The position numbers and the translations under genes are program-made. Positions 1,266 through 57,874 of a stretch of 64,000 nt of DNA are shown in pieces. The first letter of the stretch is position 1, and the number at the start of each line of letters is the position of its first letter. Under the pieces are notes generated by a model. That model was not told the origin of the DNA, ran no database searches, and saw only the letters and a list, made by a program, of their open reading frames with translations. This stretch comes from Deltaproteobacteria bacterium (GTDB taxonomy: Bacteria; Bacillota; Desulfotomaculia; Desulfotomaculales; JAGUVT01): the NCBI GenBank assembly GCA_020062745.1, contig JAGUVT010000014.1:23521-87520 (forward strand), given 5' to 3'.

Positions 1266-2201
<936 letters not shown>

Positions 2202-2275
2202 CTATAATTATTATACAGTATATAGTATACAGAATAAAGGAAAAAATAACCACTTAAATTATTATAGTTTTTAAA

Positions 2276-2707: not shown

Positions 2708-2748
2708 CTAAACTTCCCTCCAATATAGTGGTTAGTGCTTTTTAATTT

Positions 2749-2952
2749 TTAAAGCAAGTCACGGTTAAAATCTCTTACCGACATCGATTCCAGCAATCCG
2801 GCTATCTTCCAGAGGCTGATCTGACCACTTTTTTGAATAGTGTGAACGCGGTACTCTTTCTCTTCAGCCGTGCCGTAAGCTTCAATGGCGGCCGTGATTG
2901 CTGCCAGAACGGCCGGTCTGAGCCGTTGTTGCTTTGTTAAAACATTCGGCAT
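2749..2952 (-). CDS. Small (67 aa) protein of the transcarboxylase operon, unknown function; OadG/MmdD-like C-terminal motif without a membrane anchor
   Basis: ORF with SD GGAG 6 nt upstream, packed tightly between the 12S and biotin-carrier genes. The segment RPAVLAAITAAIEAY resembles, from memory, the conserved soluble segment of decarboxylase gamma/delta subunits. Confidence 0.5.
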   Translation of the reverse strand: MPNVLTKQQRLRPAVLAAITAAIEAYGTAEEKEYRVHTIQKSGQISLWKIAGLLESMSVRDFNRDLL

Positions 2953-2965
2953 GGGGTTCTCCTTT

Positions 2966-4501
2966 CTAGCAGGGCATGTTCCCGTGTTTCTTTCTCGGCC
3001 TGCCTTCCCGTTTGGTAGCCAGTTCTTTAAAGGCGCTGATTACTTTAGCCCTGGTTTCCCGCGGGTCGATTACATCCAATACGTATCCCCTGGCACTGGC
3101 AATATACGGGTTGGCAAATTTATCACGGTATTCCTCGGTCAACCTGGCCCGGGTTTCCGGCGGGTTTTCAGACTCGTTGATTTCTTTGCGGCAAATGATA
3201 TTAACCGCCCCTTCCGGGCCCATTACTGCAATTTCAGCAGTGGGCCAGGCATAAACAGCGTCAGCCCGCAAGGAACTGCTGCACATGGCCACATAGGCGC
3301 CACCATAAGCTTTGCGGAGAATAATGGTTACTTTGGGAACAGTTGCTTCAGAATAAGCATAAAGAATTTTGGCTCCGTGCCTGATAATGCCGCCGTATTC
3401 CTGGCCGGTTCCCGGCAGGTAGCCCGGAACATCCATAAAAGTCAGCAAAGGGATATTAAAGCAATCGCAAAAACGGACAAACCGGCTTATTTTATCGGAA
3501 GCGTTAATGTCCAGGCAGCCTGCCAGATAATTAGGCTGATTGGCAATTATACCGACGGCCTGTCCTTCCAGCCGGGCAAAACCAACTACTGCATTTAAGG
3601 CGTAGTTGGCGTGGACTTCAAACAGTTCGCCGGTATCAACCACATAACGGATAATATTTCGCACGTCATAAGACTTATTCGGATCATCAGGGATTACTTT
3701 AATCAGTTCTTCGGCGTCGCCGGGTGGCGACTTGACTTCGCTTAAAGGCGGCTCTGAAAGGTTGTTTGAAGGTAAATAACTCAGCAGTTGGCGGATCATG
3801 GAAATACAATCCTCTTCGCTGTCGGCCATAAAGTGGGCCACTCCGCTGACCTGGTTGTGTGTGGCGGCGCCGCCCAGCGCTTCCATGGAAACGTCCTCGC
3901 CGGTAGTGGCTTTGATTACCTGGGGGCCGGTGATAAACATCTGGCTTTTTTCGGCCACCATGAAAATGTAGTCGGTTAATGCCGGCGAATAAACTGCGCC
4001 TCCGGCACATGGCCCCATAATTACCGAAATCTGAGGGATCACTCCGGAAGCAATGGTATTGCGATAGAATATCTCGCCGTAACCGTTAAGAGCATCCACT
4101 CCTTCCTGGATTCGGGCGCCGCCTGAGTCGTTAAGGCCGATTACCGGCGCCCCCACCTTCATGGCCGCATCAAGTGTCTTACAAATCTTGGCCGCATGGA
4201 TTCTGCCCAGAGAGCCGCCGGTTACCGTAAAGTCCTGGGCAAAAATATAAACCCTGCGGCCGTCGATCATCCCGTGGCCGGTAACCACTCCTTCACCGGG
4301 ATTCTTTAAATCAGCAACGTTTTCCTCACCGGCGAATACGTCCATTTCTACGAAAGTGCCGGCGTCAAACAAAGCGTTGATTCTCTCCCGGGCAGTCTTT
4401 TTGCCCGCCTCATGCTGTTTTTGAATGCGTTCCGGCCCGCCGCCTGCTTCAATTTGTTTCCGTAATTTTTTCAGTTGTTCTAATTTTTCCTGCATACTCA
4501 T
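2966..4501 (-). CDS. Methylmalonyl-CoA carboxyltransferase 12S subunit (propionyl-CoA carboxylase beta family)
   Basis: The track ORF is 2966..4540. I trimmed the start to ATG 4501 (MSMQEKLEQL...) because GGAGGT lies 7 nt upstream and this removes the overlap with the epimerase gene. Carboxyltransferase family sequence runs throughout (GGSLG, DSGGARIQEG, two crotonase-like halves). Confidence 0.93.
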   Translation of the reverse strand: MSMQEKLEQLKKLRKQIEAGGGPERIQKQHEAGKKTARERINALFDAGTFVEMDVFAGEENVADLKNPGEGVVTGHGMIDGRRVYIFAQDFTVTGGSLGRIHAAKICKTLDAAMKVGAPVIGLNDSGGARIQEGVDALNGYGEIFYRNTIASGVIPQISVIMGPCAGGAVYSPALTDYIFMVAEKSQMFITGPQVIKATTGEDVSMEALGGAATHNQVSGVAHFMADSEEDCISMIRQLLSYLPSNNLSEPPLSEVKSPPGDAEELIKVIPDDPNKSYDVRNIIRYVVDTGELFEVHANYALNAVVGFARLEGQAVGIIANQPNYLAGCLDINASDKISRFVRFCDCFNIPLLTFMDVPGYLPGTGQEYGGIIRHGAKILYAYSEATVPKVTIILRKAYGGAYVAMCSSSLRADAVYAWPTAEIAVMGPEGAVNIICRKEINESENPPETRARLTEEYRDKFANPYIASARGYVLDVIDPRETRAKVISAFKELATKREGRPRKKHGNMPC

Positions 4502-4520
4502 ATATGAAACCTCCAGTCTG

Positions 4521-4925
4521 CTAACGCTCGCATAGTTCAATCAGGGTGCCTAAAGTGGACTGTGGATGCAAAAAGGCGATCCGGGCGCCGCCGGCACCGC
4601 GGCGCGGTTTTTCATCAATCAGGCGGACACCTTTGGCTTTCAGTTCGGCTAACCTTGCTTCGAGGTTTTCCACCCGGAAAGCGACGTGCTGGATTCCCTC
4701 GCCGTTTTTTTCGATGTATCTGGCCACCGGCCCGTCAGGGGAGGTGGATTCTAAAAGCTCCACCTCGCTGTCTCCGGTGGGGAGAAAAGCAACTTTTACT
4801 TTTTGTTCTTCGACAATTTCCGTATCGGTTACCTTTAACCCCAGGAGTCCTTCGTAAAGTTCTATGGCTTTATTTAAGTCCTTGACGGCAACTCCGATAT
4901 GGTCGATCTTTTTAATCACTGACAT
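4521..4925 (-). CDS. mce: Methylmalonyl-CoA epimerase (VOC/glyoxalase fold)
   Basis: 134 aa with IDHIGVAV...GIQHVAF...FLHP metal-ligand pattern typical of the epimerase. The true start may be GTG 4919, which has GGGAGGG 6 nt upstream. Confidence 0.88.
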
Positions 4926-4958
4926 CCCTCCCTTATTTATTAAAATATATCCATTTTT

Positions 4959-6656
4959 TTAAAATATAACCTGCTGCTCGTATTCGCCAAAGACTTCTCT
5001 TAACACGCCGCATATTTCTCCCAGCGTGGCATAATTTCTCACCGCTTCAATAAAGATGGGCATTAAATTATCCTTGCCTGCCGCTGCTTTGCGCAACCCG
5101 GACAGAATTGATTCCACCCTGGCATTGTCTCTTCCGGCCCGTAACTTTTTCAATTTTTCCGCCTGGCGCTCGCCGACGGTCAGGTCTACTTTCAACAGGT
5201 CTTTCGGTTTCTCCGGCGGCATTACGAATTTATTGACACCGATGACCACCTTCTGGCCCGACTCAATATCTTGCTGATATTTATAAGCGCTGTTGTGGAT
5301 TTCCCGCTGCATAAAGTCCAGAGCTTTTGTCGAACCGCCCAATTCGTCGATTTTGCTGATATACTGTTGTGCTTTTTCCTCCAACTGGCCGGTCAGGTTT
5401 TCCATAAAGTAAGAACCGCCCAGTGGATCCACAGTATCGGCGACACCAATTTCATAGCCGACCACCTGTTGGGTACGCAGGGCGATTAATACCGATTCTT
5501 CAGTCGGCAGGGCCAGGGCTTCGTCCCGGGAGTTGGTGTGCAGGGATTGGGTTCCTCCCAGAACGGCGCTCAAAGCCTGGAACGCCACCCGCATGATATT
5601 TACATCGGGCTGCTGGGCGGTTAGAGTACAGCCGGCAGTTTGGGTATGGAACCGTAACATGCACGGGCGGGGATTTTTGGCCCCGAACCGTTCTTTCATG
5701 ATTTTCGCCCATAAGCGGCGGGCAGCCCGGAACTTGGCTATTTCTTCAAAGAAGTTGAGGTGGGCGTTGAAGAAGAAAGACAACCTGCCGGCAAAATCAT
5801 CTATGTTCAATCCGGCTTTAACGGCCGCATCTACGTAGGCGATACCGTTTGCCAGGGTGAACGCGACTTCCTGAGCGGCAGTGGATCCGGCTTCTCTGAT
5901 ATGATAACCGCTGATGCTGATCGTATTCCAGGCCGGTATTTCTTTGGCGCAATAAGCAAAGATATCGGTGATCAGGCGCATGGAGGGCTCCGGTGGCAGA
6001 ATATAAGTGCCTCTGGCGATATACTCCTTCAAGATGTCATTTTGGATAGTGCCATTTAGTTTTGACGGCTCTACTCCCTGTTTCTCAGCAACTGCAATAT
6101 ACATGGCCAGTAAAATGGCGGCCGGTGCGTTAATGGTCATGGAGGTGCTTACTTTATCAAGAGGTATTTGGTCAAATAGGGTTTCCATATCCATGATGGA
6201 GTCGATGGCTACCCCTACTTTGCCGACTTCCCCGCTGGCCAGCGGATGATCGGAATCATATCCGATCTGGGTGGGCAAATCGAAAGCTACCGAGAGGCCG
6301 GTTTGACCCTGCTCCAACAGATAACGGAAGCGGCGGTTGGTTTCTTCCGCTGTGCCGAATCCGGCGTACTGGCGCATGGTCCACAACCGCCCGCGGTACA
6401 TGTTCGGCTGTACTCCGCGGGTAAAAGGATACTCGCCGGGCAATCCCAGATCCTGCATATAATCAAAATCAGCGTCCGGCGTATAGAGACACTCAATTGG
6501 CACCCCTGAGTCGGTGCTGAAGTCCGCCTGCCGTTCGGGACGTTTTTTTAAGGTTGTTTCCAGTCTGGTTTGCCAGGCCTCTTTGAGAGCAGCAATTTCT
6601 TTTAGTTTTTCTTGATTAAACAAAACCTTCCTCCTTTCTTTTCTCCCCTTCGTCAA
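4959..6656 (-). CDS. mcmA: Methylmalonyl-CoA mutase, catalytic (N-terminal, substrate-binding) subunit; no fused B12-binding domain
   Basis: The canonical MCM signature is intact: RQYAGF (Tyr89), [14 protein letters not shown] (Gln197/Arg207) and SGYH (Tyr243/His244), in P. shermanii numbering. The protein ends at ~565 aa, before where the cobalamin domain would start. The start is more likely TTG 6623 (AGGAGG 6 nt upstream) than TTG 6656. Confidence 0.92.
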
Positions 6657-7523
6657 TCAAGCCAAAAGTTTTCTAATCATCTCCGGTACTTCGGACGGCA
6701 TTTCGGCTACCAGGGCGCCGGCTTCGGCAAGGGCTTTTACTTTCCCCTCGTAAGTTCCTTTACCTCTTCTGATAATTGCTCCGGCGTGACCCATCCGTTT
6801 TTCCGGGGGGGCGCTCTTGCCGGCAATATAAGCTACCACCGGCTTGGTCATCTCTTTAATATAAACCGAGGCTTCTTCCTCGGCGTTGCCGCCGATTTCG
6901 CCAATCAACACAACAGCTTTTGTTTCCGGATCGGCTTCAAAAAGTTTTAGCACGTCAATAAAAGTAAGACCCACAATGCGGTCTCCGCCCATACCGACAG
7001 CAGTGGATTGACCGAACCCGGCTGCAATCAAGTTTCCTGCGATCTCGTAAGTTAAAGTTCCGCTGCGGGATACCATTCCCACCGGACCGGGCATGAAAAA
7101 CTGGTTGGGCGGTATGCCTATTTTGCATTTACCGGAAGAAACAATACCAAACGTGTTGGGCCCGATGAGGACGGCCTTCTTCCGCTGGGCATAGGCTATA
7201 AACTCCATTTCGTCCTGTACCGGAATATGTTCAGTGATCACTACCACAGTGCCGATTCCCGCCTCCAGGGCTTCCAGGACGGCATCTTTGGCGAAGGCGG
7301 CAGGGATAAAGATTACCGACGCATCGACCTGATGTTCTTGTAAAACCGCCCGTACCGTGTCGTAAACCGGTATGTCTTCAAATTTGCTGCCGCCTTTCCC
7401 CGGCGCCACGCCGGCTACAACCTTCGTGCCATAAGCCAACATTTGCCTGGTGTGAAAAGAACCTTGCTTACCAGTAATACCCTGGACCATAACACGGGTA
7501 TTTTGATCAACAATAATGGCCAC
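6657..7523 (-). CDS. sucD: Succinyl-CoA synthetase alpha subunit
   Basis: 288 aa with [12 protein letters not shown] and the phosphohistidine loop MGHAGAI. GTG start. Confidence 0.93.
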
Positions 7524-7543
7524 TAATAAGACAACCCCTTTAA

Positions 7544-8674
7544 CTAAAGACTTCCTGCCGGTACCAGTGCAGCCAGTTCTACCGCCTTGGCTGCCGCCTC
7601 GTCCATATTCGTGTAAGCTTCAATCCCCTGTTCCCGCAAAATACGCCTTCCTTCCTCCTGGTTGGTACCCACCAGCCTGATTACCACCGGTACAGGGATG
7701 CCGTGCTCTTTTTTTACCTTTGCGAAGGCGCCGGCAACATCATCGCACCGGGTAATACCGCCGAATATGTTAATAAAAATTACTTTCGGATCTTTCGCCA
7801 GCAAAATTTCTAAAGCTTTGGCAGTAGCCTCCATATCGGTTCCGCCGCCTACATCCATAAAATCGGCCGGCGCGCCGCCGTAACGCTGGATTATATCCAG
7901 GGTGCTCATGGTAATGCCAGCGCCGTTTGCCATTACGGCAATGTCCCCCTCCAGTTCAACATATGAAATGCCGAGGTCCTGGGCCAGTTTTTCTGCTTCG
8001 GTTTGTTCTTCTATATATGGAATGTCTTTCTGCCTGAACAGGGCTTCAGAGTCAATGATTACCTTGGCGTCAGCCGCAATAATTTTTTCTCCGCAGAATA
8101 CCAACGGGTTAATCTCAACCAGTATAGCATCTTTCTCCTGAAATATTTTATATGCCGCCAGAATAATATTAAGCAGCTCTTTTCCCTGCCTGCTGCCTAC
8201 ATCCAGACCCAGCCGGCGAACAATGTTGCGGGCAATAAAAGGGTGTATCCCGAGTTCCACATCGAGGTGTACTTTGACAATTTTATTTTCAGGCACTTCT
8301 TCAATATCCATGCCCCCCTGGCTGGAAGCAATGATTACCGGTTTCTTAGCTCCTCCGTCAATCGTGACGGACAGGTAAAACTCCCGGTCGATATGCAACT
8401 TTTCTTCGATCAGCAGCTTTTCTACCGTATGCCCCTCGATTTTCATGCCTAACAATTCCCGGGCAGCTTTTTTAGCCTCTGCCGACGTGTCGGCAAATTT
8501 AATGCCGCCGCCTTTTCCCCGTTTACCTGAAAGAACCTGTGCTTTGATTGCTACCGAACCGATTTCCGTAGCAACCCAGGCTGCTTCATAAGCAGTGGTA
8601 ACCACTCTTCCTTTTGGCACCCGCAGGCCAAAGCGGCTGAAAAGTTCCTTTCCCATGTATTCAAATATTCTCAC
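7544..8674 (-). CDS. sucC: Succinyl-CoA synthetase beta subunit (ATP-grasp)
   Basis: 376 aa with N-terminus [12 protein letters not shown] and an ATP-grasp plus ligase-CoA domain order. GTG start, adjacent to sucD. Confidence 0.93.
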
Positions 8675-31951: not shown

Positions 31952-32734
31952 TCAGTTGCCTTTGAATGCCGGCTTTCTTTTGTTTAAAAAAGCTTCGATT
32001 CCTTCTGCGTGGTCAGCAGTGGTAAAAGTAAGGGCAAACAGGTCGGCCTCATGAATAAAAGCTTTTTCCATGTCCATTTCCAGCCCTTCGTTAACGGCTT
32101 CTTTGGACAGGCGAACGGCTACCGGCCCTTTAGCGGCAATGCGGCCGGCCATCTTTTTGCAAAAGTCGATTAGCTCTCCTGACGGAACAACATGGTTCAC
32201 CAGTCCAATCCTCAAGGCAGCCTGCGCATCATATTGATCTGCCGTGAAAAGTATTTCTTTGGCTATCCCGGGATTGACCAGCCTGGTCAAACGCTGGGTA
32301 CCGCCAAAACCGGCCATCAGTCCGAGATTTACTTCCGGCTGGCCGAATTTTGCATTTTCCGACGCCACCCGGATATCGCAGGCCATAGCCAGCTCGCACC
32401 CGCCACCCAGGGCAAAACCGTTAACAGCGGCAATAACCGGCTTGGGCAGATTTTCAATACGACTGAACACCTGCTGCCCGTGGCGGGCAAAGTCCCTGGC
32501 CTGCAAAGGGTCGAGGGATTGCATAAACTTGATATCGGCGCCGGCTACAAAAGCTTTGTCACCAGCCCCAGTCAAGATAATCACCCGTATTGCCGGGTTG
32601 ACAGCCAGTTCGGTCATTGCTTCGTCCAGTTCGCCAAGTGTCTCCGTATCGAGGGCATTTAACAATTTCGGACGATTTATGATTACTAAAGCCAGATTAT
32701 CTTCTGTTTCTACCAGGATATTTTTCCACACCAT
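31952..32734 (-). CDS. crt: Enoyl-CoA hydratase (crotonase)
   Basis: I trimmed the start to ATG 32734 (GGGGGG 7 nt upstream). The crotonase fold is supported by FVAGADIK and GGGCELAMACD. Confidence 0.9.
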   Translation of the reverse strand: MVWKNILVETEDNLALVIINRPKLLNALDTETLGELDEAMTELAVNPAIRVIILTGAGDKAFVAGADIKFMQSLDPLQARDFARHGQQVFSRIENLPKPVIAAVNGFALGGGCELAMACDIRVASENAKFGQPEVNLGLMAGFGGTQRLTRLVNPGIAKEILFTADQYDAQAALRIGLVNHVVPSGELIDFCKKMAGRIAAKGPVAVRLSKEAVNEGLEMDMEKAFIHEADLFALTFTTADHAEGIEAFLNKRKPAFKGN

Positions 32735-32757
32735 TATTAATCCCCCCTTCGCCTGTT

Positions 32758-33606
32758 TCAATACTTGTAGAAACCCCGGCCGGTCTTGCGTCCGAGCCAG
32801 CCCGCAGCCACGTATTTGCGTAAAAGCGGACAGGGCCGGTACTTGGAATCACCCAGGCTTTGATGCAATACTTCCATGATGTAAAGGCAGGTATCCAGTC
32901 CGATGAGGTCGGCCAGGGCCAGGGGTCCCATCGGGTGGTTCATACCCAGCTTCATTACCTGGTCGACTGCTTCCGGAGTGGCGATTCCCTCGTAAACGCA
33001 ATATATCGCCTCGTTGAGCATCGGCACCAGGATCCGGTTGGAGACAAAGCCGGGGGAATCATTTACTTCAACCGGAACCTTGCCCATTCGTTCGCTGGCA
33101 GTTTTCACCAATTCGTAAGTTTCATCAGCAGTGGCCAGACCCCTGATCACTTCAACCAGTTTCATTACCGGCACCGGGTTCATAAAATGCATGCCGATGA
33201 CTTTATCCGGCCGTTTGGTCGCCGCGGCGATTTCAGTAATGGGTAAAGACGACGTATTTGTGGCCAGAATGGCTTCCGGTTTGCAAATATTATCCAGCTC
33301 ACGGAAGATCTTGCTTTTTATCTCCATATTTTCTACCGCCGCCTCAATAACCATATCGGCGCCCGCAGCATCAGAAAAAGCGGTGGAAGGAGTAATTTGC
33401 CTCATTACCGCTTCTTTCCGGGCTTCATCAATACGCTCTTTGGCCACATCACGGCTTAGATTTTTCTCAATAACATTTATTCCCTTGTTTACTAAAGCAT
33501 CGTTTAAGTCGTTAAGTAATACTGCATAACCGGCCTGGGCAGCCACCTGGGCGATACCGCCGCCCATCTGGCCCGCGCCGATAACCATAATTTTTTTAAT
33601 TTCCAT
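32758..33606 (-). CDS. hbd: 3-hydroxybutyryl-CoA dehydrogenase
   Basis: I trimmed the start to ATG 33606 (AAAGGAGG upstream). Motifs [12 protein letters not shown], the catalytic region [13 protein letters not shown] and the C-terminal GRKTGRGFY are present. Confidence 0.93.
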
Positions 33607-33634
33607 TAATAAGCCTCCTTTGCTCAATAACAAG

Positions 33635-34819
33635 TTACATAATATTTTCTACAATCATTGCCGCTCCCTGGCCGCCGCCGATGCACAGGGTGGCCAGACC
33701 GTAACGGCCGCCGCGCCGTTTCAGTTCATAAAGCAGGGTTACCAGGATGCGCGCGCCGCTGGCGCCAATAGGATGACCCAGGGCCACCGCCCCGCCGTTA
33801 ACATTAACTTTCTCCGCCGGCAGCGCCAGTTCCCGGCACACCGCTACGGCCTGGGCGGCAAAAGCTTCATTAGCCTCGATTAAATCAAGATCGGCGATAC
33901 TCAGACCGGCCTTGGCCAGCGCCTTGCGGCTGGCCGAAACCGGCCCCATACCCATATAAGCAGGATCGACTCCGGCAACGGCGAAAGCTTTTATGGCAAA
34001 AAGCGGTTTTAGGCCCAGTTCAGAGGCTTTTGCCGCGGACATTACCACTACTGCGGCCGCCCCGTCGTTAATACCGGAGGCATTGCCGGCCGTAACCGTT
34101 CCCTCTTTTTTAAAGGCCGGCTTCAGTTTCGCCAGTTCTTCCATGGTTGTACCGCGCCGGGGAAATTCATCTACGGCGAATTGCACCGGTTCCCCCTTTT
34201 TTTGTGGTATGGCGACCGGCACGATTTCCTCCTTGAATTTCCCGGTATCTATGGCGGCAATAGCCTTTTGCTGGCTTTCCGCGGAAAACCGGTCCTGATC
34301 TTCCCGGCTTACTCCGTACCTGGCTGCGACGTTTTCAGCCGTAACGCCCATATGGACATCACCAAAAGCACACCACAACCCGTCTCTGATCATGGAATCA
34401 ACCAGTTTACCGTCACCCATGCGGTAACCCCACCTGGCTTTTTCAATAAGATAAGGGGCCGCGCTCATGTTTTCCATGCCGCCGGCTACAATAACATCGG
34501 CCTCGCCGGCAGCGATCAACTGGGCTGCCAGACCGACAGTCTTTAAGCCGGAGCCGCACACTTTATTTATCGTAGCAGCAGGAACTTCGTAAGGGATACC
34601 GGCTTTTACCGCTGCCTGCCGGGCCGGGTTCTGACCAAGACCGGCCTGTAAGACATTGCCCATCAGCACTTCGTCCACCTGCCGGCCTTCCAGTCCGGAC
34701 CGGCGCAGCGCTTCGGCAATTACCAGGGCGCCTTGCTCGGTTGCCGAAACCTCGACCAACGTGCCGCCGTACTTGCCGACGGCCGTGCGCACCGCGCCGA
34801 CAATAACCGCTTTATGCAT
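33635..34819 (-). CDS. thl: Acetyl-CoA acetyltransferase (thiolase II)
   Basis: 394 aa with the active-site Cys in [10 protein letters not shown] and C-terminal [16 protein letters not shown] and CIGGGQG. Confidence 0.95.
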
Positions 34820-34860
34820 TATTTGCTTACTCCTCCCCCATTCGATTTGTGGTAAAAACG

Positions 34861-36831
34861 TTATGCCATTGTTCCGGCGATCATTTCGGCCAGATCCAGA
34901 ACCTTGACTTTTTCTTCCGCTTCCTTGTCTTTAAGGCCGTCTTCAAGCATGGTCAGGCAATACGGACAGTTGCAGCAAATGACTTGTGCATTTGTGGTCA
35001 GGGCCTGTTCGGTGCGCATGACATTGATCCGCTTGCCGTGACTTTCCTCAAGCCACATCCGGCCGCCGCCCGCCCCGCAGCAGAAACCGTTTGTCCGGGA
35101 ACGCGCCATCTCGGTGACGGTTACACCGGGAATGGCCTGTAAAATATGGCGCGGCTCATTATATACGCCGTTGTATCTGCCAAGGTAACAGGAATCATGA
35201 TAAGTGGCCTGCACCTTCTCACTGCCCGGTTTGAATTTCAACTTGCCCCGGGCAATAAGTTGGGCCAGAAACTGACTGTGGTGAATAACTTCATAATGAC
35301 CGCCGAACTGGCCGTACTCGTTTTTCAAGGTATTGAAGCAATGCGGGCAGTGGGTAATGATTTTTTTAACTCCATAGCCGTTTAAGGTTTCAATGTTCTC
35401 CTTGACCATGGTATCGTACAAGTACTCATTTCCCAAACGGCGGGCGGATTCGCCGCAGCATTTTTCTTCAGTGCCCAGAATGGCGAAGCTCGTCCCCGCA
35501 GCTTTCAGGACTTTTGCCAGGTCCCGGACCACCTTCTTGTTCCTATCGTCAAAAGACCCGGCGCAACCTACCCAAAACAGGTAGTCTACTGCGCCGGGGT
35601 CGTCACCCAAAATCCTGATCTCCAGGTCGGACGCCCAATCCGCCCTGGTATTCCAGCTAACCCCCCAGGGATTGAAGTTTCTTTCCATGTTGGTAAAAGC
35701 AAGCTGGGCTTCCCCCGGAAAGTCGGACTCATCCATCACCAGGTTGCGTCGCATGCCGATGATTTTCGGGATATGTTCATTAAAAGTAGGGCACTGTTCC
35801 ATACAGGCAAAACAGGTGGTGCAGGCCCAGATTGCTTCCGGGTCGAATACGTCTCCCACCATTTTTTTGTCGTCTTCCGCGTCTTTTTTCGCAGTCAGAT
35901 GCTCTCTCAGTTGCAGAATGATTCTTTTCGGTGAAAGCGGTTTTCCGCTGAGATGAGCCGGGCAACTGGCCTGGCAGCGGCCGCATTCGGCGCAGGCGAA
36001 AGTATCAAGTAAATCTTTCCAGGTGAATTCTTCGATTTTACCGATGCCGAAAGTTTCTATTTCCTCATCTTCAAAATTAATCGGCCTGGTCATACCGCCC
36101 CTTGGCTGCAAATTGCGCAAATAAGCGTTTATCGGGGCGGCTACCGGGTGCACCAGGTGCGAATAACGGAAAAAGATCATCAGTCCGATACCCAGGGCCG
36201 CGCTCACCCACCAGAAAGTAACATACAGGGCTGTCAAAGTACCGCTGACGGATCCGGCCATCCATCCGGCCACGGCGTTGGTAATAAAGGCCAGGCTGTA
36301 TTTACTTTCCGGCTGAAGCAAGGATAAAGCGGCGCCGGCGAAAAAGTAAGCGATCACCATCAGACTCATACCGGCGATTAATCCGACGATTATTGCCTCT
36401 TCGCGGCCGCTGCCGACATCGAGGCGTTCTACCCGCGCTATATAGCGCCGGTAGGCGGATACCAGGATGCCGACCAGCGCAAAAAACCCGAACACGTCGG
36501 CAAGCAGGTAGAAGAAAGGGCTTTTACCGAGCAGCGGCAGGTTAAAACCGGGTATTAGCCGGTTTAAAAAGAGCTGAAGCATACCCAGGGCAAAAACAGT
36601 CAGACCCCAGAAAATCATCAGGTGCATCAGGCCGGGGCCGAATTCCCTTACTATTCTGCGCTGCCCCAAAACATCGGTTACCAGCCCGGCAATTCGCCGG
36701 CCGGGATTGTCAAAGCGGTTTTCCGGTTTGCCTCTTTTAATAAGCTTGTATCTTTCTACCAAACCCTGGCTGAAAGAGTAAATTCCAAAAATTAAAAGTA
36801 CTACAAAAATTATAACCTCCGGGAAGCTCAA
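34861..36831 (-). CDS. Membrane-bound Fe-S oxidoreductase (N-terminal multi-TM domain plus HdrD-like 2x[4Fe-4S] and two CCG domains), EtfAB:quinone-oxidoreductase-like
   Basis: I trimmed the start to TTG 36831 (AAGGAGAG 6 nt upstream). About six hydrophobic helices are followed by [24 protein letters not shown] and the CCG motifs WVGCAG...KCCGES...HCPHC and YHDSCY...FCCGAGGG...NCPYC. The architecture matches the DUF224-type protein linked to butyryl-CoA oxidation in Syntrophomonas. Confidence 0.85.
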
Positions 36832-36975
36832 GACAATCTCTCCTTTTTTTAATATTGCAACAAAAATTGCCACGTGTTTCCCCGGTTTAACATCTAACCC
36901 CAAACTCATAAAGCCTGTAGAAGAAAGTATTCTCTCCTTGCAATAATCTTTTTTCAACAGGCTCCTCTTTTTGTT

Positions 36976-38115
36976 CTATTTCAAAAGGTAGTTGGCAATA
37001 ACAATACGCTGTACTTCACTGGTCCCCTCGTAGATTTCAGTTATCTTGGCGTCGCGCATCATCCTTTCTACCGGATATTCCCTGCTATAGCCATAACCGC
37101 CATGAATCTGCACGGCTTTGGTGGTAACCCACATGGCTGTCTCAGCAGCAAACAGCTTGGCCATGGCAGACTGCTTGCCGTAAGGTTGGCCGCTATCCTT
37201 CAAGCAAGCAGACTGGTAGACCAGCAGGCGGGCAGCTTCAATTCTGGTCGCCATGTCGGCCAGCATCCACTGAATTCCCTGGTTGGCGCTGATCGGCTTC
37301 CCGAACTGTTCCCGCTGTTTGCTGTAGGACAAGGCCTGATCCAAAGCTCCCTGGGCGAGGCCTACAGCCTGGGCCCCGATGCCAATCCGGCCGCCGTCAA
37401 GGGTGGCAAGGGCGATTTTGAAACCCTGGCCGTCTTCCCCGAGCATGTTTTCTTTCGGAACCCGGCAGTTTTCAAAAATCAATTCGTAGGTATAAGAAGC
37501 CCTGATTCCCATTTTATGCTCTTTTTTACCAAAGGTAAAACCGGGCGCGCTTTTTTCCACAATAAAAGCCGCCGTGCCGCGGTGTCCTTTGCTGCGATCG
37601 GTGCTGGCGATAATAATGTAAGTTTCTGCCTTGCCGGCGTTGGTAATAAAAAGCTTGGTTCCATTTAGAATATAGTCGTCACCATCGGCCCTGGCGGACA
37701 GCTTAACCGATCCGGCATCCGAGCCGGCGGACGGCTCGGTAAGACCCAGGGCGCCGATTTTTTTCCCTTCGGTCAGGGGAACCAGATAATTTTTTTTCTG
37801 TTCTTCAGTGCCGAAATGATAAATGGGCCAGGAACACAACGAAGTGTGTGCTGAAAGTAAGACGCTGGTGGAAGTACAAACACGTGACAATTCCTCAACA
37901 GCAATAGCGTAACAGAGGTTATCCATACCCGCGCCGCCGTACTCTTCCGGAAATGGAATGCCGGTCAGTCCGATTTCTGCCATTTGATCCCATAACGACC
38001 AGTCATAATCTTCCTTCTCGTCCATTTCGGCGGCTTTGGGGGCTACTACGGTTTCGGCAAAATCCCGCACCGTCTTGCGAATCATTTCCTGTTCTTCGGT
38101 TAACTGAAAGATCAT
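36976..38115 (-). CDS. Acyl-CoA dehydrogenase (short/butyryl-CoA type)
   Basis: 379-aa full ACAD fold ([10 protein letters not shown], catalytic-base region YEGTSEVQR). Confidence 0.93.
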
Positions 38116-38149
38116 CTGCCTCTCCCCTTAATTAATAATATTTTTTTGT

Positions 38150-39328
38150 TTAAATTACCCCGTCCCGGCGGAAAGATGCAATTTCTTCCGCCGAGTAATT
38201 AAACTGCTTTAAGACTTCTTCCGTATGTTCGCCCATGTCCGGCGGCGCTGAAACTATTTTGGCAGGGGTATCGGATAATTTTATGGGTACCCCGATTTGT
38301 TTTATCGTTCCCAGGCGGGGGTGCTCCATCTCGAAAATCATTTGCCGGTGACGAATCTGGGGGTCTGCGAATACCTCCGCCATATCACAGACCGGTGTGC
38401 AGCAGACATCTTTATCCGCCAGTTCGGCTACCCATTGATCGCGCTCCCTGGTAAGGAACTGTTCCTGTAAGAAACGGCTTAATTCCTCCTGCTTTTCATC
38501 AATATACTGCCACTGGATGTATTCTTCTTTCCCGAAGTATTTACATAAATTCTTCCAAAAATGTTCTTCTGCTGCAGCCAGAGCTACATAACGCCCGTCT
38601 TTTGTCTGATAAACATTGTAACAGGCGTATCGGCCGGTAAACGTCGTCCCGCCTCGCCTGGGTATTTTGCCAGAAGGAAAGTACTCGCCGGCCAATGTGG
38701 CAGCTATGGGAACAGTTCCATCCAGCATCGAGATATCAACAAACTGACCCTTGCCGGTGCGCTGCCGGGCCTGCAGAGCCAGTAAAATACCAATTACAGC
38801 CATCATGGCGCCTCCGGTAAAGTCGGCGATCTGGGTACCGGGAATAACCGGCTTTTCGTTTAGCAGGCCGGTCATCCCGAGAATGCCGGCATAGCCAATG
38901 TAATTGATATCGTGCCCGGGCGCCTGGACATATGGGCCATCCTGTCCGTAACCGGTAACAGAGCAATAAATTATGGCCGGGTTGATTTCTTTCAAAGTGC
39001 TGTAATCAACCCCGATCCTTTTTGGGACTCCAGGACGGTACCCTTCCATCACTACATCTGCTTCTTTAACCATACGGTAAAAGATTTCCTTGCCGGCAGG
39101 ATGCTTGAGATTCAATATAATACTTTTTTTATTCCGGTTGATAAGCAGGAAATTGCCGCCTGTATCACCAACCTTATCGGCTGACATCCAGCGCAAGTAA
39201 TCACCACGACCGGGTTCTTCTATTTTAATAACCTCAGCTCCAAAGTCAGCAAGCATCATAGAACAATAAGGCCCTGGAAGCAAGCGGGTCAGATCAAGCA
39301 CTTTTATTCCTTCCAACGGTGTAGTCAT
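38150..39328 (-). CDS. Family III CoA-transferase (CaiB/BaiF/Frc family)
   Basis: 392 aa with LEGIKVLDLTRLLPGPYCSMMLADFGAEVIKIE and the catalytic Asp region GHDINY. Confidence 0.9.
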   Translation of the reverse strand: MTTPLEGIKVLDLTRLLPGPYCSMMLADFGAEVIKIEEPGRGDYLRWMSADKVGDTGGNFLLINRNKKSIILNLKHPAGKEIFYRMVKEADVVMEGYRPGVPKRIGVDYSTLKEINPAIIYCSVTGYGQDGPYVQAPGHDINYIGYAGILGMTGLLNEKPVIPGTQIADFTGGAMMAVIGILLALQARQRTGKGQFVDISMLDGTVPIAATLAGEYFPSGKIPRRGGTTFTGRYACYNVYQTKDGRYVALAAAEEHFWKNLCKYFGKEEYIQWQYIDEKQEELSRFLQEQFLTRERDQWVAELADKDVCCTPVCDMAEVFADPQIRHRQMIFEMEHPRLGTIKQIGVPIKLSDTPAKIVSAPPDMGEHTEEVLKQFNYSAEEIASFRRDGVI

Positions 39329-39454
39329 AATAGTTCCCCCTTTTTTAATACAATTCTATACATGGACCTTTTGTCGGTAGCAAGAAGAATAGCTTAACAG
39401 ATAAGAATTCTCCAAAAATAGTTCAATTCCTCCCGCCGGGTAGGCACTTTTCAC

Positions 39455-39505
39455 TTAAAAAGCAGCATGTCTTACACGTTTCAAGAGTACGTGCCCATGC
39501 TGCTT
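39455..39505 (-). terminator. Rho-independent terminator after the mutase pair
   Basis: The minus-strand RNA forms the outer stem AAGCAGCAUG/CAUGCUGCUU (39460-39469 pairing with 39496-39505) and the inner stem CACGU/ACGUG, followed by UUUUUAA. Confidence 0.6.
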
Positions 39506-39538
39506 AATAGAAATCCTTTTTGGTTTAACCTAATTTAA

Positions 39539-39943
39539 TTAAGCAGACGCCTTTCGTTTTACGTTTTTACTGATGTAATCGACTATGTGTTCCATTTTTG
39601 AGCCGGGCAAAAATACCTCGTCTACTCCTGCTTCTTTCAGTTTCGGTATGTCATCAAGCGGAAATACCCCGCCCAATACTACGAGGATATCCTTTGCCCC
39701 GCTTTCCGAAAGCAACCGGGTTATTTTGGGGATCAGCTTCATATAGGTTGAAGACAAAAGGCTTAAACCAAGGACATCCACATCTTCCTGAATAGCCGTT
39801 TGAACAATTTGTTCCGGATCTTGCTGCCCAATGTATACAACTTCCATTCCGGCATCCCGTAGCGCCAGGCTTACGATTGTGGCGCCCCAATTGTGAGCGT
39901 CAAAACCAGGTTTTGCCATCAATACTTTGATTTTGCGTTCCAT
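39539..39943 (-). CDS. Cobalamin-binding small subunit of an acyl-CoA mutase (divergent)
   Basis: 134-aa flavodoxin-like B12 domain with the DxHxxG motif as FDAHNWG and GLSLLSS. SD GGGGGA is present. Confidence 0.85.
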   Translation of the reverse strand: MERKIKVLMAKPGFDAHNWGATIVSLALRDAGMEVVYIGQQDPEQIVQTAIQEDVDVLGLSLLSSTYMKLIPKITRLLSESGAKDILVVLGGVFPLDDIPKLKEAGVDEVFLPGSKMEHIVDYISKNVKRKASA

Positions 39944-39963
39944 ACACCTGTTCCCCCTTATGC

Positions 39964-41595
39964 CTACAGCATTCTTTGCTCTGCAACTCCATATACTTTA
40001 CGCCAGACGTCGCATATCTCTCCTACACCGGCATATGCTTTGACGGATTCCATTACGGCCGGCATTACGTTCTGATCTGTTTCACTGACTCTGGCCAGTT
40101 CTGATAACGCCTTTTGTACCCGGTCGTTATCCCGCTCTCTTTTCAGTTTTTCAAATTTGGCCCTTTGAATCTCATAGGTCTTCGGATTAGTTTTATAAAC
40201 ATCGTATTCATAAGGCTCCTCAGCCATTTCGTAGCAGTTGACGCCGACGATATTCAACTCGCCGCCGGCCAACTTTTTGGTATGTTCCCTTTGGGCTTCT
40301 ATTCTTTCTTTGTACAGCCAGCCGGATTCCAGGGCGGCAAACCATCCTCCCTGTTCCTCAATCTTCTGCAAATATTCACGCGCTTTTTCTTCAATCTCAT
40401 TGGTCAGCCACTCGATATAATACGAACCGCCAAGCGGGTCTATAACGTTGGCAATGTTGGTTTCCAGTTGGGCAATTTGCTGCGTCCTGATGGCCATTAA
40501 AACACTTTTCTCTGTCGGGGTGCAAATTGCCTCATCAAACGAGTTGGCATGAATAGACTGGGCTCCCCCCAGAGCTGCCGCCAGCACCTGGTAGGCTATC
40601 CGGACAATGTTGTTCAGAGGCTGCTGGTAGGTATGGGTTGAACCGGCTGTTTGCACATGGAACCGCAACGTCAGTGAATTTGGATTGCGGGCGCCGTATC
40701 TTTCCTTCATCAACCGGTACCACAATCTTCTGGCGGCTCTATATTTGGCGATTTCTTCAAAAAAGTCGTTATGAGCCGATAAATGGAAAGTAAATTTGGG
40801 TACAAAGTCATCCACTGCCAGTCTTTTTCTCTTCAGTTCTTCTTCGATATAGTCTAAAGCTGCGGCAATCAGGCCGGCAATTTCCTGGTAGGCGTTGACC
40901 CCGGTTTCCCGGTAATTATACGAGGTAAAACTAACCGGATGCCATTTGGGTACATTTATGGCGCACCACTCTACCAGGTCAACGCCCAGTCTCAACAGGT
41001 GCCGGGGCGGGTATGAGTCACGAAACGGGCCACAGGCGGCAAAAGAGACGGGATCACCTTCTGTAGTCCCGTCAACGTCGCTTAGCTTTATTCCTCTTTT
41101 TTCAGCCAGGGCAAAATACATTGCGGTGTGGGGACAAGTGGTGGTCATCAAGGGGATAACAGCAGCGCTGATTTTGCCTATCGGCAGACCTTCAAAAATG
41201 GTTTCCATATCCTGCAGGTTGCTTAATGAAACTCCTCCAGCCGCTACTTCTGCCTCTGCCAGTGGATGATTGGGGTCGTGTCCCATAATACTCAGGTTGT
41301 CCATAGCAATGGCAAAGCCGGTAATACCGTTTTCATACTCGTATTTAAATCTTTCATTTGTTGCTTCCGGTGTATCCAGGCCGGAAAATTGGCGGATCGT
41401 CCACAGCTTTCCCCGGTACATGGAAGGATAGATTCCCCTGGTGTAAGGTTCTTCCCCCGGCATGCCCAGATCCCGATCATAATTCAAACCAGATATATCT
41501 CCCGGAGTATAGACTCTTTTTACCGGTATTCCCGAATTCGTGGCAAACACTTCTTTTCTTTCTCTGAATCTTTTTGTTTCTTTAGTTCCTCCCAT
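39964..41595 (-). CDS. Acyl-CoA mutase large (substrate-binding) subunit, divergent paralogue of unknown substrate
   Basis: 543 aa with mutase-family blocks (YTRGIYPSMYRGKLWTIRQ, FFEEIAKYRAARRLW, VIDPLGGSYYIEWLT). The signature positions are changed: RQFSGL (Tyr89 to Phe), GTTEGDP in place of GTIQNDI, and SYN in place of GYH (His244 to Asn). Confidence 0.85.
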   Translation of the reverse strand: MGGTKETKRFRERKEVFATNSGIPVKRVYTPGDISGLNYDRDLGMPGEEPYTRGIYPSMYRGKLWTIRQFSGLDTPEATNERFKYEYENGITGFAIAMDNLSIMGHDPNHPLAEAEVAAGGVSLSNLQDMETIFEGLPIGKISAAVIPLMTTTCPHTAMYFALAEKRGIKLSDVDGTTEGDPVSFAACGPFRDSYPPRHLLRLGVDLVEWCAINVPKWHPVSFTSYNYRETGVNAYQEIAGLIAAALDYIEEELKRKRLAVDDFVPKFTFHLSAHNDFFEEIAKYRAARRLWYRLMKERYGARNPNSLTLRFHVQTAGSTHTYQQPLNNIVRIAYQVLAAALGGAQSIHANSFDEAICTPTEKSVLMAIRTQQIAQLETNIANVIDPLGGSYYIEWLTNEIEEKAREYLQKIEEQGGWFAALESGWLYKERIEAQREHTKKLAGGELNIVGVNCYEMAEEPYEYDVYKTNPKTYEIQRAKFEKLKRERDNDRVQKALSELARVSETDQNVMPAVMESVKAYAGVGEICDVWRKVYGVAEQRML

Positions 41596-55681: not shown

Positions 55682-55777
55682 TGAGATTCCTCCCGTTTTA
55701 TTTTTTACCGGAAGGAGGAATTTATTTATGCTGATTAGAATTATCGAAAAATATAAACAGCAAAGGGGTTGATCCAT

Positions 55778-57436
55778 TTGGCTGAAACAAACGAGACAGT
55801 TTCTTCTTCCTACCACGAAAAGTTCAACCGGGGCAAAACCTGGTCCGGCCTGGAATTAAAGGAATTCTACAATCCTGCGGACACTGCCGGTATAGATTAC
55901 CACCGCTCTATCGGCGATCCCGGCCAGTATCCTTATACCCGCGGCATCCACCGCAATATGTACCGGGGCCGGCTCTGGACCAGGCGCGAGGTCTGCGGTC
56001 TCGGCTCGGCCCGGGAAACCAACGAAAGACTGAAGTTTTTGCTGCGGGAAGGCGCCGGCGGCCCCAACGTAATTGTAGACGTGCCGGGAGAGTTGGGTAT
56101 TGACGCCGACCACCCGCGGGCCGCCGGCGAAGTAGGGGTGACCGGGGTAAGCATCAACTCGTTAGCAGATATAACTGTTCTGACGGAAGGAATCCCTCTT
56201 GATAAAACCAGTTTTTCTTTGATTGTCGCCGCCCCCTCGGCGGAAGTAATGTTCAGCCAATACCTGGTCGAAGCACAACGCAGGGGCATTGATTTCCGTC
56301 TTTTAAGCGGTTCCATCCAGAACGACCCCATCCATCTCCGGTACTGCGGCTTCCCGCCGGCCGCCCCGCTCGACGTGGCCCGGAAAACGGCTGTGGATAT
56401 CATTGAATACTGCACCAGGTATGTACCCCGCTGGTACACCACTACCATTAACCTTTACGACCTGCGGGAAAACGGCATCAGCGCCGCGCAAGAGATTGCC
56501 TTCGGTTTCGGCATCGGCCTGATTTACATCGACGGCGCTATTGAAAGGGGACTGCAGATAGATGACTTTATACCGCGCCTTTCCTTTTATTGTTCCGCCC
56601 ATATTGATTTCTTTGAAGAAATAGCCAAACTCAGGGCGGCCCGCCGGCTCTGGGCTAAAATCATGCAGGAACGCTACGGGGCAAAAGATCCCCGCTCTCT
56701 GCAATTCCGGTTTGCCGTCCATACGGCCGGCTGTTCGCTGGTGCCGCAGCAGCCGCTGAACAACGCCATCCGGATCGCTTACGAAGCGCTGGCGGCTGTA
56801 TTAGGCGGAGTACAATCGCTGCACTGCTGCTCCTACGACGAACCCATCGCCCTGCCCACCGAGCAATCACACCTGCTGGCCATCCGCACCCAGCAGGTTC
56901 TGGCCTATGAAACCGGTGTCGCCGCCGTAAGCGACCCGCTCGGCGGGTCTTATTACATAGAAAACCTGACCGATAAAATTGAGGAAGAAACCCTCAAGAT
57001 ATTTAAAGAGATTGAGGACAGGGGCGGCATGCTGGAGGCAATTAATTCCGGCTGGATTGATCAGGAAATGGAAAAAGCTGCTTTGGAAGAGCAGCAGCGC
57101 ATCGAAAAACGGGATCGCCTGGTGGTCGGGGTCAATGTCTTCCGGATGCCGCCGGAAGACGCGACCCCCAGCGGCGTTCAGCGCATACCGGCGCAGGTAG
57201 AACAAAAGATCATTGAAGATGTCGAAAAGCTTAAAAAAGAGCGGCACCGTCCGGCCTGGCAGCAGGCCATCGACAACTTGAAACGGCACACCGAAAAGGG
57301 TGAAAAGGAAAACTTGATCCCGCCGGTCATTGAATGTATAAAAGCCGGTGCGACTGTGGGAGAAATAATGGGCGTAATCCGGCAGGCATACGGTCATCCG
57401 TACGACCCCCTGGAAGCAATCCAACCGCCCTATTAA
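55778..57436 (+). CDS. Acyl-CoA mutase large subunit, third and divergent paralogue of unknown substrate
   Basis: Mutase blocks are present ([49 protein letters not shown]). The signature positions differ: RREVCGL (Tyr89 to Val), a 4-residue deletion after IQND, and LYD in place of GYH (His244 to Asp). I prefer start TTG 55778 (AAGGGG 8 nt upstream). The track uses 55769. Confidence 0.85.
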   Translation: MAETNETVSSSYHEKFNRGKTWSGLELKEFYNPADTAGIDYHRSIGDPGQYPYTRGIHRNMYRGRLWTRREVCGLGSARETNERLKFLLREGAGGPNVIVDVPGELGIDADHPRAAGEVGVTGVSINSLADITVLTEGIPLDKTSFSLIVAAPSAEVMFSQYLVEAQRRGIDFRLLSGSIQNDPIHLRYCGFPPAAPLDVARKTAVDIIEYCTRYVPRWYTTTINLYDLRENGISAAQEIAFGFGIGLIYIDGAIERGLQIDDFIPRLSFYCSAHIDFFEEIAKLRAARRLWAKIMQERYGAKDPRSLQFRFAVHTAGCSLVPQQPLNNAIRIAYEALAAVLGGVQSLHCCSYDEPIALPTEQSHLLAIRTQQVLAYETGVAAVSDPLGGSYYIENLTDKIEEETLKIFKEIEDRGGMLEAINSGWIDQEMEKAALEEQQRIEKRDRLVVGVNVFRMPPEDATPSGVQRIPAQVEQKIIEDVEKLKKERHRPAWQQAIDNLKRHTEKGEKENLIPPVIECIKAGATVGEIMGVIRQAYGHPYDPLEAIQPPY

Positions 57437-57463
57437 ACTTATATGCGTCAAGGGAGGTTTGAA

Positions 57464-57874
57464 ATGGCTAAAAAGATCAGGGTTATTTTAAGTAAAATCG
57501 GTCTGGACGGTCACGACCGGGGGATTAAGATGCTGGCCCGTATGTTCCGGGAGGCCGGGATGGAAGTAGTCTATATGGGGCTGTACCAGACACCGGAAAA
57601 TGTGGTGCGGGCGGCAGTGCAGGAAGACGCCGACGTTATCGGACTGAGCATTCTCTCCGGCGAACACCTTACGCTGGTGCCAAAAGTAACCGCGCTTTTA
57701 AAAGAGCAAAAACTGGAAAATGAAATTTTACTGCTGGTCGGCGGGGTTATTCCGAGAGAAGATGTGCCGGCGGTTAAAAGCCACGGGGTGCACGAAGTGT
57801 TTACCGCCGGGTCGCTGGTGGAAGAGATTGTAGACTATATTCATCAATGGGTAAACAGGAGGGCAAAGACTTAA
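57464..57874 (+). CDS. Cobalamin-binding small subunit of acyl-CoA mutase (canonical type)
   Basis: I trimmed the start to ATG 57464 (GGGAGG 6 nt upstream). Motifs GLDGHDRG (DxHxxG) and GLSILSGEHLTLVP are present. Confidence 0.88.
   Translation: MAKKIRVILSKIGLDGHDRGIKMLARMFREAGMEVVYMGLYQTPENVVRAAVQEDADVIGLSILSGEHLTLVPKVTALLKEQKLENEILLLVGGVIPREDVPAVKSHGVHEVFTAGSLVEEIVDYIHQWVNRRAKT

Follow-up and report, generated by a model that had tools for sequence, protein, structure and literature searches.

What reaction would an acyl-CoA mutase catalyze once the residues that define its best-known relatives have been replaced, and why should its genes lie between sporulation genes? These questions are raised by a gene pair in a 64,000-nucleotide stretch of a Deltaproteobacteria bacterium genome (assembly GCA_020062745.1, contig JAGUVT010000014.1, positions 23,521 to 87,520), referred to here as a whole as the window. 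The pair consists of two intact, co-directional open reading frames (ORFs) on the + strand, which encode the large and small subunits of an acyl-coenzyme A (CoA) mutase that depends on B12. We favor, at a probability of roughly 55%, a reading in which the pair would encode a functional two-subunit adenosylcobalamin (AdoCbl)-dependent mutase that belongs to a distinct, conserved subfamily and acts on another acyl-CoA substrate, the window copy being an orphan. The pair is laid out as follows:

55778..57436, + strand: mutase large (substrate-binding TIM-barrel) subunit, 552 residues from TTG 55778
TTG 55769, + strand: alternative start of the large subunit, giving 555 residues
57464..57874, + strand: B12-binding small subunit, 136 residues from ATG 57464
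ATG 57443, + strand: alternative start of the small subunit, giving 143 residues
57506..57523, + strand: DGHDRG (DxHxxG) motif, small-subunit residues 22-27

We prefer TTG 55778 as the large-subunit start on account of the ribosome-binding site AAAGGGG at 55762-55768, and ATG 57464 as the small-subunit start on account of AAGGGAGG, which lies 7 nt ahead of it; large-subunit residue numbers follow the 555-residue frame throughout. A preliminary description of this locus had read it as an acyl-CoA mutase pair, and profile searches agree with it. Residues 23-542 of the large subunit cover the whole of PF01642 (MM_CoA_mutase; profile positions 1-512 of 512, E = 2e-170), and the same protein scores 534.6 bits against TIGR00641 (cutoff 303.8), while the small subunit matches PF02310 (B12-binding; E = 7.8e-25) and TIGR00640 (mutase C-terminal domain; 148.2 bits, cutoff 57.45). 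As the same description had said, the small subunit is canonical, with a GLDGHDRG sequence that is followed by SIL and GG motifs; in solved mutases, the histidine of DxHxxG is the cobalt ligand of B12. An AlphaFold2 (AF2) model of the large subunit has a predicted template-modeling (pTM) score of 0.84 and a confident barrel core. Foldseek searches with this model gave matches at TM 0.82-0.85, with HcmA (4r3u) at the top (TM 0.85, 37% identity) and methylmalonyl-CoA mutases (MCMs) next.

To compare active sites, we mapped the large subunit onto the numbering of P. shermanii MutB through HMMER alignments to HcmA (4r3u) and human MCM, together with MAFFT. The MutB sequence, which we take to be correct, has 727 residues like PDB chain 1req_A, and Y89, Q197, R207, Y243, H244, Q330, N366, E370 and H610 were all reproduced in it. 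In MCM, Tyr89 and Arg207 hold the carboxylate of methylmalonyl-/succinyl-CoA, His244 protonates the thioester carbonyl, and Thr365 and Asn366 lie near the adenosyl group. The corresponding codons in the window are:

55991..55993, + strand: Val75, at the MutB Tyr89 position (HMMER/MAFFT)
56333..56350, + strand: H189-L-R191-Y-C193-G194, on helix 187-193 (ungapped alignment; helix from the AF2 model)
56456..56461, + strand: Tyr230-Asp231, at MutB Tyr243-His244 (HMMER/MAFFT)
56720..56722, + strand: His318, at MutB Gln330 (alignment)
56825..56830, + strand: Cys353-Cys354, at MutB Thr365-Asn366 (alignment)

Two of these substitutions had been noticed before, namely Val for Tyr89 within RREVCGL and Asp for His244 within LYD in place of GYH, and both hold in our mapping, at Val75 and at Asp231 (with Leu at the Gly242 position). 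A four-residue deletion proposed to follow IQND, however, was the product of a misalignment that paired FPP with LPP: Q184 to Y214 align with MutB Q197 to Y227 ungapped and at a constant offset of 13 in both HMMER and MAFFT, and Gly194 thereby falls at the position of Arg207. Beyond the changes already described, His318 replaces Gln330, Cys353 and Cys354 replace Thr365 and Asn366, Ile102 replaces Ala116 (Asp117 in HcmA), His189 replaces Lys202, and Arg191 replaces Phe204. In the AF2 model, Arg191 lies one helix turn (three residues) before Gly194 on the same helix face. Overall, of the catalytic-site residues of characterized mutases, Gln197, Tyr243 and Glu370 are retained (as Gln184, Tyr230 and Glu358), and His244, Gln330 and Asn366 are changed to Asp, His and Cys.

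Are these replacements peculiar to one protein? When 5.8 billion protein clusters were searched, over 120 of them matched at 57-76% identity, and we scored 25 positions across the 120 closest 90%-identity clusters. Gln184, His189, Gly194, Tyr230, Asp231, His318, Cys353, Cys354 and Glu358 are each conserved in 120/120 sequences, Ile102 in 119/119 aligned, Val75 in 118/119 aligned, and Arg191 and Cys193 in 117/120 each. The pocket signature of V75, I102, Q184, H189, R191, G194, Y230, D231, H318, C353, C354 and E358 is thus invariant or nearly so, and only four of the scored positions, all in the second shell, vary freely. In MutB numbering, the subfamily is marked by Val89, Ile116, Gly207, Asp244, His330 and Cys365-Cys366, and eleven positions are fixed differently from all His244-type mutases. 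Because the replacements are invariant across the clade, the active site is, as far as these alignments can tell, a conserved and derived one rather than a product of decay or part of a pseudogene; the retention of pocket residues in 117-120 of the 120 closest clusters argues for selection on a different function.

A neighbor-joining (NJ) tree of 101 large subunits, including the three of the window, HcmA, human MCM and MutB, places the sequences with Asp244 and Cys366 in one clade (74/100 bootstrap), in which the window protein is joined to its two nearest relatives, from loci L084 and L001 (75-76% identity to the window large subunit), at 100/100. The clade stands apart from the Y/R/H (MCM) group, where the first large subunit of the window falls, and from the F/Q group resembling isobutyryl-CoA mutase (ICM), an L/C/Q group, and HcmA. 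The phylogeny therefore sets the protein outside the MCM, ICM-like and 2-hydroxyisobutyryl-CoA mutase groups placed in this tree. Together with the distinct and conserved pocket, this separate clade supports the functional diversification that the preliminary description had proposed for the mutases of the window.

Comparison with the characterized mutases points the same way. Among solved structures, HcmAB of Aquincola tertiaricarbonis (4r3u) matches best in sequence (384.7 bits) and also in structure, and it is likewise split into a large TIM-barrel subunit and a separate small subunit for B12. Its setting in the native host is also a catabolic one, with ligase and mutase together. HcmA and the window protein are 38% identical over aligned columns, and in the direct 4r3u alignment the HcmA pocket has Ile90, Asp117, Gln208 and an intact Tyr-His pair, whereas the window protein has Val75, Ile102, Gly194 and Tyr-Asp, plus His318 and Cys353-Cys354; we accordingly rejected 2-hydroxyisobutyryl-CoA mutase as an assignment. 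With MCM (P. shermanii MutB, human MMUT), the window protein shares a Pfam family, the fold, the Gln197/Tyr243/Glu370 equivalents and the small-subunit DxHxxG motif, but is only 33-35% identical, and Tyr89, Arg207, His244, Gln330 and Asn366 are all replaced. MCM was rejected on the Val75/Gly194/Asp231 substitutions for Tyr89/Arg207/His244 and on a score of 431.9 bits against NF006944 (cutoff 876). In ICM, position 89 is Phe, position 207 is Gln and the Tyr-His pair is intact, a combination that we found in loci L035-L083; ICM/IcmF was rejected since the window protein has Val/Gly/Asp rather than Phe/Gln/His and scores 210.3 bits against NF045497 (cutoff 1500). None of the NCBIfam equivalog cutoffs is reached by the large subunit.

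Other known mutases bear on the substrate. The carboxylate-binding Tyr and Arg are absent from ICM as they are from the window protein, which suggests a non-succinyl substrate as for ICM and pivalyl-CoA mutase, and the clade's links to CoA ligases and beta-oxidation genes fit an ICM-type role. The sequence comparison covered the MCM, ICM-like and 2-hydroxyisobutyryl-CoA mutase types; of the others, ethylmalonyl-CoA mutase (ECM) acts on a dicarboxylyl-CoA and is expected to keep Arg207, which the window protein lacks. In the literature searched, we found neither a mutase with the pocket signature of the clade nor any characterized clade member, and within that scope the gene is an unusual form of a known enzyme class.

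What might the enzyme do? Since the cofactor side is canonical, the mechanism to assume by default is AdoCbl radical chemistry in which the thioester group undergoes a 1,2-shift. The large subunit is the acyl-CoA-holding TIM barrel, and the small subunit is the Rossmann-type domain with the DxHxxG motif; by analogy with other family members, homolysis of the Co-C bond would yield a 5'-deoxyadenosyl radical, which would take a hydrogen from the substrate, and once the CoA-thioester group had moved to the neighboring carbon the hydrogen would be returned. From the loss of Tyr89, Arg207 and His244, we infer a substrate other than methylmalonyl-CoA. The links to CoA-ligase and beta-oxidation genes suggest conversion of a blocked carbon skeleton; the substrate would most likely be a monocarboxylic, branched or otherwise beta-oxidation-blocked acyl-CoA, rearranged to a beta-oxidizable isomer. 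The acid/base role of His244 may have passed to Asp231, possibly together with His318.

A bolder form of this proposal holds that the clade has a new reaction specificity outside methylmalonyl-, isobutyryl-, pivalyl-, 2-hydroxyisobutyryl- and ethylmalonyl-CoA, with catalysis rebuilt around Asp244, His330 and the Cys-Cys pair; we would give this an even chance. Its substrate might be an acyl-CoA with quaternary or beta branching, or a dicarboxylyl-CoA of five or more carbons (C5+) such as glutaryl- or 2-methylsuccinyl-CoA. For its extreme version, in which Cys353/354 form a thiyl-radical relay as in class II ribonucleotide reductase, we found no support. To our knowledge, the characterized specificities of acyl-CoA mutases are few, and each opened a pathway (propionate, isobutyrate, methyl tert-butyl ether/2-hydroxyisobutyric acid, the ethylmalonyl-CoA pathway, pivalate) or a route for biotechnology. 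The natural His244-to-Asp and Gln330-to-His swap would also be a ready test of thioester-migration catalysis.

The hosts and gene contexts of the clade carry much of the argument about its role. Among the listed species-representative genome matches, the hosts are all metagenome-assembled genomes (MAGs), mostly of Desulfobacterota: Desulfobacteraceae, Desulfomonilaceae, Syntrophobacterales and other Thermodesulfobacteriota, together with Dehalococcoidia, Nitrospinota and Nitrospirae. No cultured host appears among the clade matches listed in the genome-contig scan, and every clade member found so far comes from a metagenome assembly, for the most part of a known anaerobic lineage. A tblastn search of sequenced plasmids returned nothing above 44.5% identity and hence no clade member, and a scan of metagenome contigs with the window protein returned no relative closer than 60%. 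The clade abounds in metagenome assemblies whose lineages are sulfate reducers, syntrophs and dehalogenators and whose sources are sediments, aquifers, cold seeps and tar biofilms. Its genes sit in beta-oxidation-like clusters, often with two or three different mutases per operon, and may explain how such organisms pass carbon skeletons that block beta-oxidation. The locus is a concrete target for enzymology and for the study of anaerobic carbon-skeleton metabolism.

For 37 non-redundant clade loci, we counted the genes lying within 8 kb of the mutase: a B12 small subunit is present in 22/37, an acyl-CoA dehydrogenase (ACAD) in 12/37, an enoyl-CoA hydratase in 10/37 and an additional mutase large subunit in 9/37. 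A short-chain dehydrogenase/reductase (SDR), MeaB and a TetR regulator are each found in 7/37, an SCPx-type thiolase in 6/37, a CoA ligase of the adenosine monophosphate (AMP)-forming type in 5/37 and a sigma54 activator in 4/37; sporulation genes are found in 0/37. The neighboring CoA ligases have only generic fatty-acyl-CoA synthetase matches by NCBIfam typing, and the ACADs are generic too, apart from a non-decarboxylating glutaryl-CoA dehydrogenase in locus L011 (6216-7373; also in L094 and L095), which scores 515.6 bits against NF045552 (cutoff 470). The cassette of the two closest relatives, L084 and L001, comprises a divergent PAS-sigma54 activator, the mutase large and small subunits, one to three fatty-acyl-type CoA ligases and a FabK-like flavin mononucleotide enzyme. 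Both relatives have -24/-12 promoters (TGGCAT-N5-TTGCG in L084 and TGGTAT-N5-TTGCT in L001).

Several further arrangements were seen. The relatives' promoters are textbook sigma54 elements, GTGGCATAAGTATTGCGGT and CTGGTATAAATTTTGCTTA, in L084:3796-3990 and L001:7107-7540, and the best NCBIfam match of their divergent activator is clostridial PrdR, below cutoff. In L005, L009, L013 and L028 (Desulfobacteraceae/Syntrophobacterales MAGs), two or three different mutase pairs stand in tandem, in the order divergent TetR, clade mutase large and small subunits, MeaB, second mutase and sometimes third; the second mutase has Leu89/Cys116/Gln207/Tyr-His and the third Leu89 and Tyr-Asn. An isovaleryl-CoA-dehydrogenase-like ACAD with a GAGTSEVRR motif lies nearby in L009. 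In L011, L094 and L095, the glutaryl-CoA dehydrogenase gene is two genes upstream of the clade mutase, separated from it by an SDR gene; the downstream genes encode a hydratase, an ACAD and an SCPx-type thiolase. An FAD (flavin adenine dinucleotide) oxidoreductase of about 500 residues (phytoene-desaturase/amine-oxidase type) recurs in three loci a short way downstream of the clade mutase, directly after it in L004 and L027 and after the small subunit and a hydratase in L090.

What, then, of the copy in the window? As had been described, the pair is divergent from a germinant receptor operon, in which we identified GerA, a spore-germination permease (GerB) and GerC, and convergent with genes for SpoVR, DUF444/YhbH and PrkA. 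Among the neighbor genes examined, no metabolic gene, MeaB chaperone or regulator adjoins it, and blastp found no MeaB in the whole window. The region upstream of the pair is:

55683..55777, no strand assigned: intergenic region common to gerA and the mutase operon (leader), 95 nt

A pattern scan of this leader found no sigma54 element (GG-N10-GC). Its sole + strand CAT, at 55775-55777, directly abuts TTG 55778, and there is therefore no upstream CATA-type -10 element as used by sporulation sigma factors. Only a weak TATAAA can be seen, at 55753-55758; scanning for sigma70 promoters gave none in the leader, and no terminator was found past 57874. Rfam searches found no cobalamin riboswitch or other RNA near the mutase genes. 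The leader also holds a 14-codon ORF (55729..55773, + strand; ATG CTG ATT AGA ATT ATC GAA AAA TAT AAA CAG CAA AGG GGT TGA), which overlaps the mutase ribosome-binding site and may be due to chance. Set against the cassette of its closest relatives, the window copy reads as an orphan of a catabolic cassette that would have lost its sigma54 regulator and CoA-ligase genes. Given this lost context, its location among sporulation genes is most likely incidental.

Several points weigh against our reading. The clade itself has an NJ bootstrap of only 74%, and neither a ligase nor MeaB nor a regulator lies close to the window copy. His244 matters for MCM turnover, and Asp in its place could mean low or different chemistry; we found no activity report for any clade member in the literature searched. 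The near-invariant Arg191, on the helix of the Arg207 position, might yet hold the carboxylate of a substrate, a role that would favor a dicarboxylyl-CoA. Moreover, some clade loci have dicarboxylate-type neighbors: the glutaryl-CoA dehydrogenase of L011, L094 and L095, the family III CoA-transferase of L003 and a PrpD in L088.

These last points lead to the alternative that survives best, one that we consider possible but unlikely: a longer or substituted dicarboxylyl-CoA would be the substrate, its carboxylate held by the relocated Arg191 rather than by an Arg207. Conceivable reactions are glutaryl-CoA to and from 2-methylsuccinyl-CoA, or alkyl-/aryl-succinyl-CoA to and from a substituted malonyl-CoA. 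This alternative draws on the strong conservation of both Arg191 (117/120) and His189 (120/120) on helix 187-193, one turn before Gly194; on the above-cutoff glutaryl-CoA dehydrogenase upstream in L011/L094/L095; on L003, with its family III CoA-transferase, citrate-synthase-like gene and MaoC; and on PrpD in L088. The neighboring SCPx-thiolase/DUF35, SDR, hydratase and VEG/FEG-type ACAD genes also resemble the Bbs-type beta-oxidation set for substituted succinates. However, the closest relatives of the window protein are tied to fatty-acyl-type AMP-forming CoA ligases and not to CoA-transferases, it is other subclades, at 55-60% identity, that show the dicarboxylate-type contexts, and Arg191 is replaced by Tyr in L010 and L020 though the rest of the signature is kept. 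A monocarboxylic substrate hence remains the reading that we prefer.

A link of the enzyme to sporulation or germination, through co-regulation with the flanking gerA or spoVR-prkA genes, is improbable. The pair does sit between the gerA operon and spoVR-yhbH-prkA, with the 95-nt intergenic region in common with gerA, but its orientation, divergent from the one and convergent with the other, puts it in neither operon. The leader has neither an upstream CATA-type -10 element nor a sigma54 site, sporulation neighbors are missing from all 37 other clade loci, and the closest relatives are controlled by a PAS-sigma54 activator. We found no support for treating the sporulation neighborhood as functionally meaningful.

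The split B12 mutase IaaGH, among named enzymes the nearest candidate for such a dicarboxylyl rearrangement, deserves separate attention. It is predicted to interconvert (2-aminophenyl)succinyl-CoA and (2-aminobenzyl)malonyl-CoA in anaerobic indoleacetate degradation, and iaa operons occur in Aromatoleum, in sulfate reducers such as Desulfatiglans anilini and in Ferroglobus (PMC8360864). Like the clade members, IaaGH is a split mutase of anaerobes, sulfate reducers included, that works within a modified beta-oxidation pathway, and the IaaF orthologues, which are ACADs, have GGG in place of the YEG motif (PMC8360864). That the window pair is an IaaGH orthologue is nevertheless quite improbable. 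The taxonomic range of iaa operons overlaps that of the clade, the neighbors of the mutase in L003 include an amidohydrolase, ACADs, a family III CoA-transferase and also a hydratase, and the new Asp231, His318 and Arg191 could suit an amino-aryl dicarboxylate. Yet the GGG motif is present in only 1/17 ACADs beside clade mutases (L013) and missing from the other 16, which have YEG, FEG, VEG, TEG, GAG and similar motifs, neither the window copy nor its closest relatives have iaa-type neighbors, and the window pair has no ACAD beside it.

We give a similarly small chance to a decaying orphan, cut off from its ligase, regulator and chaperone partners and no longer used. The window has no CoA ligase, MeaB, adenosyltransferase or regulator, the sigma54 promoter of the relatives is lost, and the pair lies on the + strand of a nearly all - strand window. 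Against decay stand two intact ORFs with good ribosome-binding sites and the retention of every clade-invariant residue. Isolated large-small subunit pairs are also found in other clade members (L091, L010 and L020), and partner genes may lie beyond the 64-kb window. An orphan copy that is still functional accordingly accounts better for these features.

The least credible alternative, a redundant MCM or a supplier of the B12 subunit to the MCM of the propionate operon, has on its side the database annotation (methylmalonyl-CoA mutase N-terminal domain/family protein) and a canonical MCM large subunit at 4959..6656 without an adjacent small subunit, but can be set aside given that Tyr89, Arg207 and His244 are all replaced, that the score lies below the MCM equivalog cutoff (431.9 versus 876 bits), that a canonical MCM is present in the same window, that large and small subunits are adjacent in 22/37 clade loci, and that the small subunit co-varies with clade large subunits, being 73% identical to the partner small subunit of L001 and 47% identical to the other small subunit of the window.

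The other mutase genes of the window are as follows:

4959..6656, - strand: canonical Y89/R207/H244 MCM large subunit (alignment)
4521..4925, - strand: glyoxalase-fold epimerase beside the MCM large subunit, not a B12 subunit
39964..41595, - strand: large subunit of a second mutase pair, in the operon at 31952..41595
39539..39943, - strand: small subunit of the second mutase pair, in the operon at 31952..41595

The preliminary description had counted our pair as the third of three. The window does contain three mutase large subunits, and to this extent the count stands, but blastp finds only two B12-binding small subunits in it, the ORF at 4521..4925 being an epimerase. The source genome has three large subunits that are not interchangeable. 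The gene at 4959..6656 is the genuine MCM of the source organism; it belongs to a methylmalonyl-CoA-pathway propionate operon (1266..8674, - strand) with genes for succinyl-CoA synthetase beta and alpha, the MCM large subunit, the epimerase, carboxyltransferase, biotin carrier and malate dehydrogenase, and no B12-binding small subunit or MeaB was found in this operon. The second pair has a strongly derived pocket of its own, with Phe at position 89 and changes of Gln197 to Glu, Arg207 to Gly and His244 to Asn. Its operon, in which it comes first, also encodes a family III CoA-transferase, an ACAD, an HdrD-like CCG/Fe-S protein, a thiolase, a 3-hydroxyacyl-CoA dehydrogenase and an enoyl-CoA hydratase. 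Finally, the G+C content of our mutase pair is 54.6%, compared with a window mean of 49.1%, and that of the adjacent gerA operon is similar; the pair is among the few + strand gene sets, the genes and the GC skew of the rest of the window being nearly all minus-strand.

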